A stretch of 64,000 bases of DNA from positions 3,149 to 67,148 of the forward strand of contig QCPW01000007.1 of assembly GCA_003209655.1 (NCBI GenBank), read 5' to 3'. The notes under the pieces were generated by a model. It was not told the DNA's origin, did no database searches, and worked only from the letters and a program-made list of their open reading frames with translations. The number at the start of each line of letters is the position of its first letter. Positions within the stretch are counted from its first letter, which is position 1. This DNA is from Prochlorococcus sp. AG-442-M23. Its GTDB lineage: Bacteria; Cyanobacteriota; Cyanobacteriia; PCC-6307; Cyanobiaceae. Below, piece after piece: positions 42,164 to 63,658 of this stretch. The position numbers and the translations under genes are program-made.

Positions 42164-42404
42164 ACAAGTATTAAAAAAAGTAAAGTATATTGCAAAAAAA
42201 TCAGATTAACTATCATTATTTGACAACTATGTACCACACCTGTCAAATAAAAGTATTTTAGGTTACTACTTCTCCATAACCAATAAAAACAAAGGGGCTT
42301 AATAGGAATTCGAGGCTTGCACAAACCAAAAATCATATTCCATGAAAGAGTATAAGCATTTATACTCACACTAAGTAATTTTACTTACTATTATATATAT
42401 AAGG

Positions 42405-42500
42405 CATTTAGGAAGTGCTTAGCTGGTTAATTTCAGTCAGTTTGAATTTAACTTATTCGTCATGAGAGTTTGCTGGTAGGGATACAAGCAAGCTCTTTTT
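42405..42500 (+). ncRNA. Candidate small RNA, copy B (3' hairpin with conserved loop plus U-tract; 5' end is a guess)
   Basis: GAGTTTGCT-GGTAGGGATACA-AGCAAGCTC-TTTTT at 42466..42500. A TATATATATAAG -10-like tract lies about 70 nt upstream. Confidence 0.45.
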
Positions 42501-42597
42501 ATTATCCAAACTAAAGAACTGATTTTAGTTTGATAAGTTAAAGCTTTTTTATTAAAAATAATCATTGATAAAAGATTAATTGCATCCAAAAAAATTG

Positions 42598-47345: not shown

Positions 47346-47884
47346 TTGGAAAATAAAAAAGTTATAAAATCAGCCTCAATTAATTATGAATAAAATTCCA
47401 GAAGAATCATTCAATAAGTTTTTTCCACTAGGTTTCAAATAAATCGGCATTTCTACGCATATACAAAAAAAATTATTCATACTAATTTTTTATTAATTAA
47501 TCGGAGGGGTTTTCAAATGATCGATAGTCCACCAGAGAAGTTCACTAGATTGGTTTAAGCTGCCAATTGTTTACTACTACACATAACTAAGTTAAGAGAT
47601 TAATTTCAAAAGAAAATGATTAATCTCTTTTTTATTGCCTTAATCTCTAAATATATGTCTTATGAGAGGTTATTTTAAAAGAATTTAAAAGGATTTAGCT
47701 CTTCTAAAACAAATCCTTGTCTAAAGATTCAAATAAATTTCTTAGTATCTATTAAAGTATCCTCTATTGTTTATTGAGATAAACATTAGATCTTTATCTT
47801 AAGTAACTAGATCCCCTATAAGTAAGCTTTATTAATTTTTCTTCTTGCCTCTTACAGTATACAAATGACTTGCCATTGAAATAC

Positions 47885-48004
47885 ATGTTTACCATGATGC
47901 AGCTCCAGAATTTGCTCAAGTCCCCGTCCTATGGCTTGAGTCGTACTGCGGTCTATCAAATGTTAGATCGGACGATTTTGGTAGTATTAACTACAATTTA
48001 TTAA
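47885..48004 (+). other. 39-codon ORF in a GC-richer patch; possible remnant of an excisionase/AlpA-type HTH gene
   Basis: MFTMMQLQNLLKSPSYGLSRTAVYQMLDRTILVVLTTIY. The GLSRTAVYQMLDR part resembles the recognition helix of small phage-type HTH proteins. The tail looks non-native. Confidence 0.2.
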
Positions 48005-54308: not shown

Positions 54309-54341
54309 TTATCCAAACTTTATCCAAACTTTATCCAAACT
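54309..54341. repeat. Perfect tandem 11-nt repeat TTATCCAAACT x3
   Basis: Read directly. It sits in the intergenic region between the AsnB-like gene (about 190 nt away, divergent) and the small-peptide cassette. Confidence 0.9.
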
Positions 54342-54515
54342 TTTTTAAATTAAAAATTAAAACCTTTGAAGATATTTTTCTGGTCTTTATTTTTACTTTG
54401 AGAATTTTTTTTAATCCTTAATCCGTACAATTTTGTTCCTCTAACCGCACACATAAAACTTGAGATTAACTATTCAAATGAATTAGAACATAAGTGTAGT
54501 CAAGAGGTAAGTCTT

Positions 54516-55608: not shown

Positions 55609-55938
55609 ATGAACAAAACACAAAAAGATATTTCAACAAAAATTAATAATTCAAAAAATCTGAATTTAATTATTAATTCTGATACATATAAATTAGCTCA
55701 TGAAGATATTAGTTTTCTGAAAAAGATTGGATTTATGGAATTAAAATTCAGTTGGTATATTTCTAACCAAATGCAAGATTGGATAGTTAGTAGAAAACCT
55801 GACTATCCCAATCTGGCAGAATTTATTGCTTGGGTAGAAGAAAAGTTAAAGAGAGATGGATCGGACTACAAATTAACAAAACAAGATCTTGAAGATATTG
55901 AAACTGCCTATGCATTTCAAACTAGTGACTTAAATTAA
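55609..55938 (+). CDS. Hypothetical protein whose last 26 codons are duplicated at 63567..63644
   Basis: 109-aa track ORF that starts 1 nt after the upstream stop. Confidence 0.5.
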   Translation: MNKTQKDISTKINNSKNLNLIINSDTYKLAHEDISFLKKIGFMELKFSWYISNQMQDWIVSRKPDYPNLAEFIAWVEEKLKRDGSDYKLTKQDLEDIETAYAFQTSDLN

Positions 55939-55953
55939 AATTTTAAAATCCTT
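55859..55953 (+). repeat. Left copy of an approximately 95-nt direct repeat (3' end of 55609..55938)
   Basis: 74 of 80 positions up to the stop codon are identical to 63565..63644 in my manual alignment. Similarity continues about 14 nt past the stop. Confidence 0.85.
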
Positions 55954-56065: not shown

Positions 56066-56128
56066 ATCTTTGATTGATATTCGATCTAAACTGGAGGGAT
56101 AAAACTCTTTTTTAACTTTTTCTTCCTG

Positions 56129-56347
56129 TTATTCTGATTCTTCTTTAACTTCAATTGTATTTACCTCTTCCGCTTTTACTTCCTCTTCTTTAACTTCAAC
56201 AAATTTTACCTTTGGCTCTTCCGCTTTTACTTCAACTAATTTTGATTCTATAGATTCGAACTTTCCTTTAATAAAATTTGCTATGAAAATTAATATTGGA
56301 ACATGGGCTAGACCACCCATTATCACTTTAGTTTCTGAATAATACAT
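56129..56347 (-). CDS. Small membrane-anchored protein with a repetitive Glu/Lys/Val tail
   Basis: One TM helix followed by VEVKAEEPKVKFVEVKEEEVKAEEVNTIEVKEESE. Confidence 0.45.
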   Translation of the reverse strand: MYYSETKVIMGGLAHVPILIFIANFIKGKFESIESKLVEVKAEEPKVKFVEVKEEEVKAEEVNTIEVKEESE

Positions 56348-56815: not shown

Positions 56816-57253
56816 TTAAAAACTCTTTTGTGACTCTATCTCATAAAATTTCTCATCTTCTTTGATTAAATACACGCTTATTTTTTTATATACTTTTTTA
56901 TCAAAGTATCCTGTTCTCTTATCTATTGAATAACGAACAGTTGGAATATCTCGAATCCAATTAAAATAATTGATTACTTCTGAATCGATAGAAATATATC
57001 TGTACTCTTTGTAGATATAACTCATCCAATCAAAATGATCGATAGATACTGTTATGTCAAAGACATAACCGTTGTAATCACCTATACACCAGCCTGCTGA
57101 TATAAAGCATCTTACTGGAGGTATTCTTGGAATATTAATCTCTACTGGACTATTTACTATCCAGTTAAAAAAGTTTTTTCCTTCAGGTTCTTTGACAGAA
57201 GAATTGCTGATCCAATTCTCAAATTTTTTTCTCTGTGAAGGACGAACCAACAT
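56816..57253 (-). CDS. Hypothetical protein with three (F/Y)xNWI repeats
   Basis: FENWISNSSVKEP, FFNWIVNSPVEIN and YFNWIRDIPTV. Divergent from the nuclease-helicase operon. Confidence 0.5.
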   Translation of the reverse strand: MLVRPSQRKKFENWISNSSVKEPEGKNFFNWIVNSPVEINIPRIPPVRCFISAGWCIGDYNGYVFDITVSIDHFDWMSYIYKEYRYISIDSEVINYFNWIRDIPTVRYSIDKRTGYFDKKVYKKISVYLIKEDEKFYEIESQKSF

Positions 57254-57386: not shown

Positions 57387-57728
57387 ATGGATCGAATAAC
57401 TACAATGCCACATAAAATAGAATTGGAATTAAAAGAACTTGTGAATCTTCTTGTAACTCTTGATAAACAACAACTAATTGAAAATTCTATGGAATCTAAA
57501 TTAAGTCAATTAGATTTTGAAAGAATTATCAAAAAATTACTACTTGATTTCGGTTTAAATCTAGTTAAAACTTTTACAAAAAAAAATGGAAGAGAGTTAA
57601 TCACAATCAATATTGTTCCTATAACTACACAAATCGAAAGGGATTTCGAATTGAATATCAAAAGTAATCTCAAAGATGAATTGGAGAAATTTATAAACGA
57701 GAAAACTATGGAGGCAGAATATGATTAA
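57387..57728 (+). CDS. Hypothetical 113-aa protein whose gene overlaps the start of the nuclease-helicase gene
   Basis: Its stop (57726..57728) lies 8 nt inside the next gene. No recognisable motif. Confidence 0.55.
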   Translation: MDRITTMPHKIELELKELVNLLVTLDKQQLIENSMESKLSQLDFERIIKKLLLDFGLNLVKTFTKKNGRELITINIVPITTQIERDFELNIKSNLKDELEKFINEKTMEAEYD

Positions 57729-60700
57729 TCGATCAAGTGAGAGAACTTTTGCACCAGGTGAATTAGCTTTGTTTTGTCAAAGTCCTCTAGCTGCTTGGTG
57801 GAATGAATTAGATCGTCGCAAACTATTTAAAGGACAAAAACTTAAAGAAGATCCACTAAATGAAATACTCAAAAAAGATGGAATTAGACATGAAGAAAAG
57901 CTAATCAAAGAATTAGAAAATCAAAATTTTAAAGTTCAAAGGCTTAAAGGCAAACAAGATAAATCAGACTATGAAGAATGTATCAAAGCTATTAATCATG
58001 GATATGATTTTATTTATCAAGGTAGTTTTAATAATGGGGAAATTAGGGGGGCAGTTGATTTACTTAAAAGAGTAGATATTCCATCAAGACTAGGTCCTTT
58101 TAGTTACATCCCAATTGAATGCAAATTAGCATCAAAAATAAATATCAAATTTATAATTCAAGCTCTTTGTTATTGTGAATTACTTATTGAATCTATGGGT
58201 AATCGTCCTAAAACATTCGAACTTTATCTTGGTGGTCGATCTTTTGAGTATTTTGATGTTGATAAATATTGGGCATGGTATCAGTTTAAGAAAAATCAAT
58301 ACAAATCTTTTCTAAGACATTTCAACCCAAATAAAGAACCAGAAGATATTCCAGGTGATCATTCAAATTGGACAGAATTCATAACTGAAAGGCTTAAGAC
58401 AAAAAGAGATTTAATATTGGTGCACAACATGTTAAAGACCCAACGTAACAAACTTAGAGCCAAAGGAATATTATCGATTGATCAACTTGCAGTCATTAAA
58501 CCTAATTCAAAAATACCTGGAATGAATCCAGAGATTCTAGAGAGATTAATAAAGCAAGCAGCGATACAAATTAAGCCAAGAAAGAATAAAAATGTTCCAG
58601 AATTTATTTTGAAAGATCAGGATAATTCCTTTGGTCTATTTAACCTACCAAAACCCAGTCAAGGGGATATATGGTTTGATTTAGAGGGATCTCGTGATTT
58701 CGTTAAAGGAACCAAACTCGAATACCTTTTTGGTGTTGTTTATTTAGATAAAAATAATCAACTAACTGACTATTACTGGTGGGCTCATACAGATGAGGAA
58801 GAGAAATTAAGCTTTGAAAAATTTGTAGATTGGGTTGAGAAAAGACGTAAAGAATTTCCTGATCTTCATATTTATCATTACGCAAATTATGAAAAAGTAG
58901 CTGTAAGAGATCTCCAACAAAAATATTTAACTTGCATAACTGAGATTACCGAGTGGCTTACAAATAATTTGTTAATAGATCTACAACCAATAGTTCAAAA
59001 CACAATCATCTTGGGCGAAGAAAGCTACTCACTAAAAAAGGTTGAAAAACTATATATGTTAAGGGAAGAAGATATGCAATCCGCAGTCGAATCAATGGTT
59101 GCATATGAACTTTGGAAAAATTCTGATGAACCAGGGATGCCAGGGAAGCTTGAAGATGGTTTAAGTCCAATGCTTGAAGAAATAAGGCTTTACAACAAAG
59201 ATGACTTAGTTTCAACTTATAAACTTAATCAATGGCTTTTAAAATTAAAATCAGATTTAAATATTCAAGAATCAGTTTCTGAGGAAGAAGAGCAAAAAGA
59301 AAAAAAGCATAGAGAAATTGATATTGAAGCCTCTCTTTTATTAGATGAAATTCCTAGCCAAGCATTTAATAGAAACAAAAATAAAAGCAAAGTTATTCCC
59401 CCCAATCCAAGAGGATGGAGTTGGGAAACACAAAAAGTTTTATCATCTTTAATGGGTTTTTTAGTTCGTGAGCAGGATGTTAATTATTGGAGATATTTTG
59501 ATAGGGTAGAGCAATCTTTTGTTAATCCATCCTCACTTTTAAAAGATGATGAAGTTATTGCTGAAGCACGTTTAGTTGAAAATTCGGAAGATATTGAATA
59601 TTCCTTTAATCCAGAACAGCCTATTAAGTTAGAAAAAGATGCAAATAATTCATGGGGCTTGAGATTATTTCTTCCGAAAAGTGAAAGGAAGTTAAAGGTA
59701 CAACCTTATGGACTTGATTGCGAGAAAGGCACTATAAAATTCAACGAAAGTAAAAGGAATATTGGTAAGAGTCTAGCAATTGAAGAATGTCTTATAAAAG
59801 TAGAATTTGACTTTACTAAAAGTGTAAAAACAAGTCTTTTAGCTCAAGCGAAAGAATGGGTAAGTGATGTTAGTACAATCTCACCAACAATTATTCAATT
59901 ATTAGAAAGAGATACGATACCTGAACTAGTTTCGGTTAACGAAAAAATTCAAAAAGATCTACCCAACATCAAGAAATATATTTCAAATTTTATTTTAAAT
60001 AATGATGAAATATTGTTTGCAATTCAGGGACCTCCTGGTACTGGTAAAACGACATTATCAAGCAAGGTAATTGCTGATTTAGTTCAAAAAGGCTTTAGGG
60101 TTGCAATTACATCTAATAGTCATAAAGTAATTGATAATTTACTTTTAAAAATAGATACTCATTTTAAAGATCACAATATCGAAAAATTAATAGTTAAATG
60201 TGATACGAGAGAAAATGAAATATTTCTGCACAGTAAGGTTTTAATACTTCCCCCTAAAAAAATTGGAAATCATATATCAGTCATGGGTGCTACAACCAAT
60301 AAATTCTGTAGTAAAGATTTTGATTCTAAATTTGATCTATTAGTGGTTGATGAAGCGGGTCAATACGCTTTAGCAAATTTACTAACAATCGCAAAACACT
60401 CTAAATCAATTCTTTTGGTAGGAGATACTCAGCAATTAGCAATGCCTACTAAGGCGAGTCATCCAAATAATTCTGGACAATCATGTTTACAATTTCTAAT
60501 GAACGGATTAGAAGTTGTTCCAAATAATAAAGGTATCTTTCTACCAATAAGCTGGCGAATGGCGCCTGCTATTAATAATGTCGTATCGGAACTTTTTTAC
60601 CAAGGGAAGCTTAAACCAAATACTAAAAATAGTGAAAATAAAATCATTTGGGAGCAATCTTCTATAGAAAAAGATAAATCAATCTATCCTGATCGAGGTG

Positions 60701-61158
60701 TCATATTTGTCCCTGTAAGACATCAAGATTGCTCTTTAAAATCAGAAGAAGAAGCAGAAAAAATTAAACAACTTATAAAACTACTTTTATCATCAAAATA
60801 TAAATTAACCTCCGATCAAGAAAAATTTATCTCTGAAAAAGATATCCTCATTATTGCTCCCTTTAATGTTCAAGTTAACTATTTAAAGCATAAGTTAAAC
60901 GAAAATTTAAAAATTGGAACAGTTGATAACTTTCAAGGTCAAGAAGCATTAATTTCTATATTCTCACTCACTTCTAGTTCAGGGGAAGATGCTCCTCGCG
61001 GACTTGATTTTCTATTAGAACCTAACCGTCTAAATGTTGCGATATCACGTGCAAAAGTGCTTTCTATAATCGTAGGTTCGCCATCACTGGCAGAAAGTTT
61101 TTGCAAAACTAACGAGGAAGTTAAAAAATTAAATAGATTAATAAGAATAATGAAATAG
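57721..61158 (+). CDS. Fusion of a RecB-family PD-(D/E)xK nuclease, a DEDD/RNase-H-like exonuclease and an SF1 (Upf1/DNA2-like) helicase
   Basis: N-terminal nuclease: GAVDLL...IPIECKLASK...QALCY. Middle exonuclease-like part: WFDLEGSRDF, IYHYANYEK, YNKDDLVST. C-terminal helicase: Walker A GPPGTGKTT, Walker B LLVVDEAGQ, LVGDTQQL, VDNFQGQEA, LNVAISRAK. Confidence 0.9.
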   Translation: MINRSSERTFAPGELALFCQSPLAAWWNELDRRKLFKGQKLKEDPLNEILKKDGIRHEEKLIKELENQNFKVQRLKGKQDKSDYEECIKAINHGYDFIYQGSFNNGEIRGAVDLLKRVDIPSRLGPFSYIPIECKLASKINIKFIIQALCYCELLIESMGNRPKTFELYLGGRSFEYFDVDKYWAWYQFKKNQYKSFLRHFNPNKEPEDIPGDHSNWTEFITERLKTKRDLILVHNMLKTQRNKLRAKGILSIDQLAVIKPNSKIPGMNPEILERLIKQAAIQIKPRKNKNVPEFILKDQDNSFGLFNLPKPSQGDIWFDLEGSRDFVKGTKLEYLFGVVYLDKNNQLTDYYWWAHTDEEEKLSFEKFVDWVEKRRKEFPDLHIYHYANYEKVAVRDLQQKYLTCITEITEWLTNNLLIDLQPIVQNTIILGEESYSLKKVEKLYMLREEDMQSAVESMVAYELWKNSDEPGMPGKLEDGLSPMLEEIRLYNKDDLVSTYKLNQWLLKLKSDLNIQESVSEEEEQKEKKHREIDIEASLLLDEIPSQAFNRNKNKSKVIPPNPRGWSWETQKVLSSLMGFLVREQDVNYWRYFDRVEQSFVNPSSLLKDDEVIAEARLVENSEDIEYSFNPEQPIKLEKDANNSWGLRLFLPKSERKLKVQPYGLDCEKGTIKFNESKRNIGKSLAIEECLIKVEFDFTKSVKTSLLAQAKEWVSDVSTISPTIIQLLERDTIPELVSVNEKIQKDLPNIKKYISNFILNNDEILFAIQGPPGTGKTTLSSKVIADLVQKGFRVAITSNSHKVIDNLLLKIDTHFKDHNIEKLIVKCDTRENEIFLHSKVLILPPKKIGNHISVMGATTNKFCSKDFDSKFDLLVVDEAGQYALANLLTIAKHSKSILLVGDTQQLAMPTKASHPNNSGQSCLQFLMNGLEVVPNNKGIFLPISWRMAPAINNVVSELFYQGKLKPNTKNSENKIIWEQSSIEKDKSIYPDRGVIFVPVRHQDCSLKSEEEAEKIKQLIKLLLSSKYKLTSDQEKFISEKDILIIAPFNVQVNYLKHKLNENLKIGTVDNFQGQEALISIFSLTSSSGEDAPRGLDFLLEPNRLNVAISRAKVLSIIVGSPSLAESFCKTNEEVKKLNRLIRIMK

Positions 61159-61171
61159 AGATATGAAAAAA

Positions 61172-61204
61172 ATGTTCACGATATGTTCATGATATGTTCA
61201 CGAT
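61172..61204. repeat. Tandem 11-nt repeat ATGTTCACGAT x3 (middle unit has a C-to-T change)
   Basis: Read directly. It occupies most of the 49-nt gap between the helicase stop and the next ORF. Confidence 0.9.
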
Positions 61205-61207
61205 TTA

Positions 61208-61411
61208 ATGGCTTCACCTTCGAGTTGGGAATTCTATAAAGAAGAACAAACTAAGATTTTATGGGTCCATATTTGTACCCAAGATTTAACGGTTGTAGCT
61301 ATTTCAATAAATAAATGGTGGAAGACAAGGTATCCAGAGTTCAAAATGAGAATAGTTTCTAAAAAAGAATTCGAACATATAAAAATGCAGGAGCCGCAAC
61401 AGCCACAATAA
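61208..61411 (+). CDS. Hypothetical protein (67 aa)
   Basis: Track ORF immediately after the 11-nt repeats. Trp-rich, with non-AT-biased composition. Confidence 0.4.
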   Translation: MASPSSWEFYKEEQTKILWVHICTQDLTVVAISINKWWKTRYPEFKMRIVSKKEFEHIKMQEPQQPQ

Positions 61412-63564: not shown

Positions 63565-63658
63565 GATCGGAATACAAGTTAACAAAACAAGATCTTGATG
63601 ATATTGAAACTGCTTATGAATTTCAAACTAGTGATTTAAATTAAATTTTAAACTCTTT
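63565..63658 (+). repeat. Right copy of the direct repeat: an orphan 3' gene fragment
   Basis: Encodes SEYKLTKQDLDDIETAYEFQTSDLN-stop, with an in-frame TGA immediately upstream and no start codon. Confidence 0.85.

Follow-up and report, generated by a model that had tools for sequence, protein, structure and literature searches.

Within a 64,000-nt stretch of Prochlorococcus sp. AG-442-M23 (contig QCPW01000007.1; hereafter the window), a gene for an 1145-aa nuclease/exonuclease-like/helicase protein (57721..61158, + strand; open reading frame (ORF) list and profile matches) follows a 113-aa ORF (57387..57728, +; ORF list). A first-pass annotation of the sequence had proposed the two as a possibly coupled defence or DNA-processing unit. 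On its profile matches, the large protein is a full-length member of the TIGR03491/COG2251 family ("TM0106 family RecB-like putative nuclease") fused to a Upf1/Dna2-like superfamily 1B (SF1B) helicase (COG1112). For the window, the analysis chiefly corrects the earlier proposal: this architecture is known, the partner is not conserved, and the partner ORF is the product of a deletion. As to function, we tentatively favour a self-contained, damage- or stress-responsive nuclease-helicase that processes DNA ends.

Domain architecture and catalytic residues of the large protein

The TIGR03491 model matched residues 69-506 (model positions 52-462 of 462) with 183.4 bits against a cutoff of 97.45. 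PF13482 (RNase_H_2) matched residues 318-506 (59.7 bits against a cutoff of 22; E=4e-16), and AAA_11 (62.7 bits) and AAA_12 (105 bits) together covered residues 756-1121. Sequence matches of the helicase part in the PDB were IGHMBP2, DNA2 and Upf1. With the same domain order and length, and a score above the curated cutoff, the protein showed no architectural difference from the TIGR03491/COG2251 plus COG1112 fusion; what sets the Prochlorococcus clade apart is an identity of just 38-45% to the nearest Synechococcus/Cyanobium proteins and upstream genes specific to its own lineage. COG2251 proteins have been described as combining PF13482 with a DUF83-like PD-(D/E)xK domain and frequently with tandem AAA domains, and the PF13482 clade has been placed with 3'-5' exonucleases in the PolB-type DNA exonuclease grouping (Majorek 2014). 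The architecture, which the first-pass annotation had considered possibly uncharacterised, is thus not new: the fusion was noted in 2014 and is already named in RefSeq, including in P. marinus XMU1414.

The three catalytic modules were all present with the motifs first read from them, and their candidate catalytic residues were conserved over 58 sequences. Conservation was scored on alignments of 12 and 58 homologues at 40-100% identity, and the residues listed here refer to the larger one. The PD-(D/E)xK (RecB/Cas4-like) nuclease module occupies approximately residues 1-200 (57721..58320, +) and carries D113, E133-x-K135 and Q147xxxY151, in which D113, E133, K135, Q147 and Y151 were invariant. 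This N-terminal module had no stand-alone Pfam match and is covered by TIGR03491. A helix-hairpin-helix (HhH)-like DNA-binding signal at residues 243-279 (E=0.068) fell under threshold. Residues 318-506 (58672..59238, +) form an RNase H-fold, DEDD-like 3'-5' exonuclease-type domain (PF13482, YprB/PolB-exo-like) with D320, E322, E391, Y491 and D495 as candidate catalytic residues; D320, E322, H386, Y387, Y390, E391, Y491, N492 and D495 were all invariant.

Ahead of the motor, the secondary structure of an AlphaFold2 (AF2) model showed stalk helices and a beta-barrel accessory region at approximately residues 560-750 (59398..59970, +). Region 511-750 had no Pfam match. In the model, residues ~560-750 resemble the 1B/stalk region of Upf1-like helicases, to which they may correspond, and Foldseek alignments to IGHMBP2/Upf1 spanned ~670 columns, beyond the RecA core alone. 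The SF1B (Upf1/Dna2/IGHMBP2-like) helicase core follows at residues 751-1145 (59971..61158, +) with all motifs intact. Walker A was mostly invariant (G770, P772, G773, G775, K776), as were E878, Q881, G901, D902, Q904, Q905, Q1072-Q1074 and R1110, with D877 present in at least 90% of sequences. The ratio of nonsynonymous to synonymous substitution rates (dN/dS) was 0.13-0.21 for the whole large gene and 0.05-0.14 for the RNase H-like domain, the most constrained module; by these estimates every module of the protein is under purifying selection.

The AF2 model, built from 58 sequences, was confident (predicted local distance difference test (pLDDT) 83.5; predicted template modelling score (pTM) 0.78). 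Its best Foldseek match in the PDB was Dna2 (5ean_A; E=8e-23 over 1123 columns), at a TM-score of just 0.32-0.35, followed by IGHMBP2, Upf1, Sen1/SETX and nsp13; E-values for Dna2, IGHMBP2 and Upf1 were ~1e-21 to 1e-23. Among viral structures, 599 columns aligned with a YprB-like protein (594 aa) from Cafeteria roenbergensis virus, whose size and name would suit the N-terminal half; the output gave no query range for this alignment. Like Dna2 (5EAN), the large protein places an N-terminal PD-(D/E)xK nuclease before an SF1B helicase, of predicted 5'->3' polarity, in one chain. It differs in the low TM-score, in a DEDD-like domain inserted between nuclease and motor, and in having no conserved four-cysteine Fe-S site, and its sequence similarity to Dna2 is confined to the helicase. 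The four cysteines of the Dna2/Cas4/AddB iron staple are not conserved: in residues 1-300 just C134 was invariant and C152 nearly so, and C19, C87 and C150 were not conserved.

The small upstream ORF and its deletion junction

Both ORFs and the 8-nt overlap between them were borne out by the ORF coordinates, and an identical overlap with the upstream gene occurs in loci L001, L006 and L092/L093. By direct sequence reading, a Shine-Dalgarno-like GGAGG lies within the 3' end of the 113-aa ORF (57710..57714, +), spaced 6 nt from the ATG of the large gene. Its position within the small ORF is compatible with translational coupling, which it may serve.

The proposal of a two-gene unit did not survive comparison with relatives. 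The 113-aa family was found upstream of the large gene solely in the window, L001, L006 and L099, where the large genes are 82-91% identical to that of the window. In the other relatives the gene upstream is an unrelated one: a 111/115-aa protein in L092/L093 and L100 (large gene 80-82% identical to the window), a 290-aa M48-like protein in L090 and L101 (72-78%), a 343-aa protein in L091 (73%) and a 162-aa acidic protein in L002 (72%). Across 80 wider loci, no upstream or downstream gene was common to all. Even within the sub-clade that has the 113-aa family, the two genes have different histories. For the small gene L001 and L006 were closest (synonymous divergence (dS) 0.16), and for the large gene the window and L006 (dS 0.23); because the gene trees disagree, recombination has separated the small and large genes. 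The 113-aa ORF is a Prochlorococcus-specific orphan, maybe translationally coupled to the large gene, and is not a conserved component of the system.

The absence of a recognisable motif in this ORF was confirmed, as scans with Pfam, NCBIfam and PADLOC gave no match. Its 183 relatives were all marine or from Prochlorococcus, with at least 72% identity among the 120 matches listed. An exhaustive hidden Markov model (HMM) search of 1.84 billion cluster representatives recovered solely its own 50% cluster and fragments of it, and the family is therefore a strict Prochlorococcus orphan. A dN/dS of 0.16-0.29 indicated a real gene; the AF2 model of the protein (pLDDT 59) was too poor for a fold search.

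DNA comparison with L001 and L006 revealed how the copy in the window arose. In these two loci the intact cluster consists, in order, of a gene for a 119/121-aa protein (gene 1), a gene for a 248-aa signal-peptide TPR protein (gene 2), the 113-aa gene (gene 3) and the nuclease-helicase gene. The upstream region, promoter, ribosome-binding site, start codon and codons 1-16 in the window match gene 1, whereas codons 17-113 match gene 3, the true 113-aa family. Base-by-base comparison placed the switch within an octamer of microhomology common to genes 1 and 3, AATTAAAA (57427..57434, +). A switch from gene 1 to gene 3 inside this octamer implies an in-frame deletion of ~1.45 kb in the window, by which all of gene 2 and parts of genes 1 and 3 are missing relative to L001 and L006. 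The 113-aa ORF of the window is thus an in-frame deletion chimera. Its N-terminus was present in 0/183 relatives of the small ORF, the nearest of which are 92-94% identical over residues 12-113 and have an ordinary N-terminus; as the N-terminus is missing from all relatives, the deletion looks recent. In the undeleted cluster (L001 6212-7310; L006 4216-5314) the TPR protein lies between the two small orphans and is a recurrent neighbour, since a more distant TPR protein (25% identity) is encoded 2.6 kb downstream of the large gene in L002.

The chimera also affected comparison of the small proteins with one another, since an hhalign probability of 48% had been inflated by a chimeric row. Without the chimera, hhalign gave 1.9% for the 113-aa family against the 119/121-aa (gene 1) family, 1.2% for the 113-aa against the 111/115-aa family, and 28% for the 111/115-aa against the 119/121-aa family; the alignments were co-linear and the statistics weak. 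These small upstream proteins often share the same 8-nt overlap and form three types with weak co-linear similarity. On one reading, the locus would be a Prochlorococcus cassette against cyanophages or mobile elements, tuned by interchangeable, fast-evolving upstream proteins of ~111-121 aa, with the chimera a natural recombinant of two modules. We consider this rather unlikely; if true, the cassette would be a modular sensor/effector arrangement in Prochlorococcus, a group with few recognised defence systems.

Upstream of the large gene in freshwater Synechococcus/Cyanobium/Vulcanococcus, a ~147-aa ORF of no known domain was observed (L004 7540-7986, L005 7509-7949, L014 5289-5735, L020 5475-5918), with 45% identity between L004 and L005. 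In three of these four loci (L004, L005, L014) a ~700-aa AAA_33-WCX protein is encoded near the gene. Homology of the 113-aa ORF to the ~147-aa ORF was considered and rejected (hhalign probability 0.2%).

Distribution, gene neighbourhoods and function

Single-cell genomes of Prochlorococcus and marine metagenomes contain relatives of the large protein that share its length and domain order and are 72-91% identical to it. At 38-45% identity the relatives came from Synechococcus, Cyanobium and Vulcanococcus, where the RefSeq name is already TM0106-family nuclease, and at ~30% identity over the full length from Legionella, Acinetobacter, Pseudomonas, Psychrobacter, Binatia, Dehalococcoidia, Obscuribacterales and many others. 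The matches listed included at least 586 bacterial species representatives, a lower bound for the family. In cultured P. marinus XMU1414 and XMU1424, a TM0106-named protein belongs to the 90% cluster of P0002, which is 89% identical to the window protein. The Prochlorococcus 90% clusters P0001-P0010 contained ~58 sequences, whereas core proteins encoded in the window had 1700-2000, and the Prochlorococcus copies lay in at least four different chromosomal contexts. The few copies, varied locations and mosaic flanks indicate that this is not a core gene at a fixed position; the first-pass annotation had placed it in an island, and an accessory island gene, not a core repair gene of fixed synteny, is what the comparison supports.

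Mobility of the family was apparent elsewhere. We found 58 full-length copies on plasmids, including those of Piscirickettsia, Rhizobium, Acinetobacter, Vibrio, Legionella and Acaryochloris, and transposases flank the gene in Cyanobium NIES-981 and Legionella. The 50,697 phage records searched contained no full-length copy and one weak, helicase-only match, and viral contigs yielded one partial match with the helicase missing. A distant blastn search with the Vibrio copy found no E. coli homologue and was uninformative. On a Picosynechococcus PCC 73109 plasmid (L098, 7001-11388), an IS5 transposase splits the gene into parts annotated as 'TM0106 family nuclease' and 'AAA domain', a natural inactivation; toxin-antitoxin pairs and NurA/ATPase genes abound on this plasmid. 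In the Cyanobium/Synechococcus clade, a VWA gene and a Metallophos phosphatase gene are syntenic upstream (positions -4/-3) in L007, L008, L013, L017, L020 and L021, the phosphatase also in L009; so conserved an order, in six to seven loci, shows that the gene resides stably on these chromosomes.

Among genes that act on DNA, SbcD/SbcC-like pairs adjoin the family member in L005, L012, L014 and L016, and L058 has an SbcD-like gene; NurA is encoded on the Picosynechococcus plasmid that carries the gene. WYL/WCX regulators adjoin in L025, L060, L065, L077, L078, L079 and L082 and on plasmids of Rhizobium (divergent, immediately upstream) and Pseudomonas luteola, and AAA_33-WCX proteins occur in four cyanobacterial loci. 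McrB/McrC are neighbours in L021, L053, L059, L067, L072 and L077, and HsdR in L043, L053 and L070. A type I restriction-modification (R-M) system adjoins in L001, where an AAA_25/RepA-like ATPase and orphan genes also border the cluster. On Acaryochloris pMB05 type I R-M, McrBC and a toxin adjoin the gene, and on Piscirickettsia and Picosynechococcus plasmids toxin-antitoxin pairs do so. PADLOC matches among immediate neighbours were WYL, Cas3c, SspE, HEC-06 and PD-T4-3. Recognisable defence neighbours occurred in a minority of ~85 loci, a raw fraction uncorrected for background.

Two further loci deserve description. In the conjugative plasmid p123 of Vibrio tubiashii (L088, 7974-14037), BREX-1 genes (pglZ, brxL), a SMEK-domain protein gene and two hypothetical genes precede the family member, which overlaps by 8 nt a 2.6-kb gene for a TrlF-family AAA-like ATPase and may represent a different two-gene arrangement. 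In L100 (2-2584), a protein of >860 aa running off the contig start has N6-adenine methyltransferase-like motifs, as read from motifs and not from a profile search; its gene immediately precedes the 111-aa ORF, itself followed by the nuclease-helicase gene, and would be an R-M-like neighbour besides that of L001.

A protein of matching architecture, known to us through its published description, is LT3115 of Limnobacter thiooxidans, with 1156 aa, a YprB RNase H-like domain and two C-terminal P-loop domains, RecB-like/DNA2-like (bioRxiv 10.64898/2026.05.23.727404). Gamma rays induced it 28.8-fold in RNA and 12-fold in protein, alongside RecA; it also responds to oxidative stress and heat, and it is sporadic in 968 genera (same preprint). 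It resembles the large protein, as far as the preprint describes it, in architecture, size and sporadic distribution. The preprint also reports that LT3115 is co-induced and co-occurs (124 genera) with a VIT-VWA protein (bioRxiv 10.64898/2026.05.23.727404); together with the VWA neighbours above, this hints at a recurrent VWA link.

In the scheme that we infer for substrate, helicase polarity, the strand cut by each nuclease and biological role, the C-terminal Upf1/Dna2-like SF1B motor would engage single-stranded DNA at ends, flaps or gaps and, going by family membership, translocate 5'->3' using ATP. The two N-terminal nucleases, one a RecB-type PD-(D/E)xK enzyme and the other a PolB-exo/YprB-like DEDD 3'-5' exonuclease, would cut the unwound strands. 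The protein would then be an analogue, in one polypeptide, of Dna2, AddAB or RecBCD. The last two offer a probable functional analogy, as they join a helicase to a RecB-type nuclease on DNA ends and serve both repair and the destruction of foreign linear DNA. They differ in being multi-subunit enzymes with UvrD-like SF1A proteins (AddA/AddB, RecB), RecBCD also having the SF1B RecD, whereas the large protein unites an SF1B Upf1-like motor with two nucleases, the second of DEDD type, in one polypeptide. Encoded by a mobile accessory gene that elsewhere is often under WYL-type regulators, the enzyme could both process damaged DNA and destroy foreign linear DNA.

The SbcCD neighbours, WYL control, gamma-ray induction in Limnobacter and Dna2-like layout support this repair-leaning reading, which stays tentative in the face of several points against it. 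A literature search (TM0106, COG2251, TIGR03491, Rv1251c) found no biochemical or genetic test of any family member. The homology of LT3115 to the large protein is taken from the preprint description, not from aligned sequences. Some defence systems, too, are typically induced by DNA damage and WYL-controlled, and many loci are in defence-island-like settings (McrBC in six, HsdR in three, R-M in L001, BREX on p123, and pMB05). To be rare and island-borne, as the gene is in Prochlorococcus, would be unusual for a generally useful repair function. Finally, since Upf1-like motors can act on RNA, the nucleic-acid substrate is not established.

The strongest rival, possible though somewhat doubtful, is that of a dedicated anti-phage or anti-plasmid effector which, like Nhi or type II Mokosh, degrades foreign replication intermediates or linear DNA, with a regulatory, sensing or inhibitory part for the variable small protein encoded upstream. 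Sporadic occurrence with horizontal transfer (plasmid copies, none in phage records), the hypervariable island with its mosaic flanks and the quick turnover of upstream small genes would all suit such a role. So would the adjoining McrBC, HsdR, type I R-M, BREX-1 with TrlF, toxin-antitoxin and, by motifs only, methyltransferase-like genes, and the immediate neighbours recognised by PADLOC. Mokosh pairs a Upf1-like helicase with a PLD-family nuclease and in type II is a single protein with the helicase N-terminal (Millman et al. 2022). The large protein shares with it a COG1112 Upf1-like helicase combined with a nuclease, and its helicase matched MkoA (PDLC03920; 186 bits, E=3.7e-55). This match was confined to residues 851-1141 (model positions 769-1094 of 1112); no PADLOC model matched the full protein, and MkoA/MkoC matched the helicase part alone. 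The nucleases also differ from Mokosh, being PD-(D/E)xK and DEDD-like and N-terminal, and no PLD family was among the Pfam, NCBIfam and PADLOC matches of the large protein or its neighbours. Nhi of Staphylococcus is similar in concept only, as one nuclease-helicase polypeptide that degrades phage replication intermediates; its family was absent from the ten PADLOC matches at E<=0.1, the presence of an Nhi model in the library being unconfirmed. Further against a dedicated defence role, the loci with recognisable defence neighbours are a minority, SbcCD-like neighbours and the co-induction with RecA by gamma rays in Limnobacter indicate DNA damage, and the small partner, not being conserved, cannot be an obligatory component. 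Defence is therefore a reasonable hypothesis, no better supported than a role in DNA damage and repair. We give damage-responsive end processing a slight edge over dedicated immunity; as with RecBCD, the two need not exclude each other.

Two other explanations were weighed. An RNA-directed enzyme, its motor running on RNA and its nucleases degrading RNA or RNA/DNA hybrids (in surveillance, at R-loops or on phage transcripts), might be expected from the RNase H-fold domain and from the best PADLOC and PDB matches of the motor, which are RNA helicases (MkoA, IGHMBP2, Upf1, Sen1/SETX, nsp13). The grouping of PF13482 with PolB-type DNA 3'-5' exonucleases, a RecB-type PD-(D/E)xK module and Dna2-like layout typical of DNA enzymes, the sub-threshold HhH-like signal and the DNA-centred neighbours (R-M, McrBC, SbcCD) make it very unlikely. 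Least probable of those weighed is a function for the carrying island or plasmid itself, in replication, maintenance or competition between elements, with no benefit to the host. Plasmid carriage, the RepA-like ATPase beside the cluster in L001, the flanking transposases in Cyanobium NIES-981 and Legionella, and an 88-nt repeat that brackets 7.7 kb around the gene in the window (see below) speak for it. The bracketed segment contains no integrase, relaxase or replication gene, many chromosomal copies show stable synteny (Cyanobium clade, Binatia), and no mobile-element gene is consistently linked to the family.

The favoured end-processing role and its defence rival bear on a large family (at least 586 species representatives here, 968 genera in the 2026 preprint) with three nucleic-acid enzymes per chain and plasmid copies in pathogens and symbionts; settling repair versus immunity, or both, would annotate thousands of genes. 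In Prochlorococcus, a rare, island-borne, predicted DNA-degrading enzyme beside R-M genes is a plausible contributor to differences between strains in phage susceptibility or UV tolerance, and the cultured carriers XMU1414 and XMU1424 make the question testable.

Island setting and local sequence features

The window derives from high-light-type Prochlorococcus; its core proteins are in 90% clusters with those of MIT 0604 and P. marinus XMU14xx. The description of the locus as a hypervariable island was consistent with a GC content of 0.23-0.31, a majority of orphan ORFs and flanks that are mosaic relative to relatives. The divergent orphan neighbour was real: the 145-aa ORF (56816..57253, -; ORF list), of no known domain in profile scans, accompanies the cluster in L001 and L006. 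The bracketing of 7.7 kb by a duplicated gene end was likewise borne out. The left copy of an 88-nt direct repeat (55859..55946, +) is the 3' end of a 109-aa ORF (55609..55938) and the right copy (63565..63652, +) an orphan gene-end fragment; the copies are 91% identical and 7706 nt apart. The bracketed 7.7 kb holds just orphan ORFs and the nuclease-helicase gene, and no integrase, relaxase or replication gene was among its ORFs. The repeat pair resembles an att-type scar of cassette insertion and is missing from L006, in which these segments have another arrangement. A simple circular permutation of the 7.7-kb segment in L006 was considered and rejected: the order is rearranged, no clean permutation fits and the 88-nt repeat is absent.

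Downstream of the large gene, the 3 x 11-nt tandem repeat ATGTTCACGAT reported earlier was found at 61172..61204 (+), directly upstream of a 67-aa ORF (61208..61411). Homology of the window ends at 61161 with L001 and at 61120 with L006; because the ATGTTCACGAT repeat is outside the segment common to relatives, it is not shown to be part of the nuclease-helicase unit. Promoter and terminator scans gave counts below or near the shuffled expectation.

Elsewhere in the window, Rfam matches in the low-GC island upstream were the small RNAs (sRNAs) Yfr20 (42402-42490, +) and Yfr11 (47495-47634, +) and a glutamine-II riboswitch (47915-47977, -). An 11-nt unit, TTATCCAAACT, occurs in 3.2 tandem copies at 54309-54343, as a double copy in the island of L006 (10690-10711) and as a single copy at 42502-42512, 12 nt past the Yfr20 sRNA. 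Exact copies in the window numbered 4 against 0.18 expected, and a regulatory or a recombination site are both conceivable. In the product of a small ORF at 56129-56347 (-), acidic EVK/EE repeats come after a hydrophobic N-terminal stretch, and a degenerate 51-nt unit is repeated five times at 56115-56261, in overlapping registers with 15-36 nt spacing. The counterpart of this ORF in L006 (10759-11004, -) lies on the other side of the nuclease-helicase gene; L006 carries segments of the window in rearranged order, and this ORF illustrates such shuffling of island cassettes.

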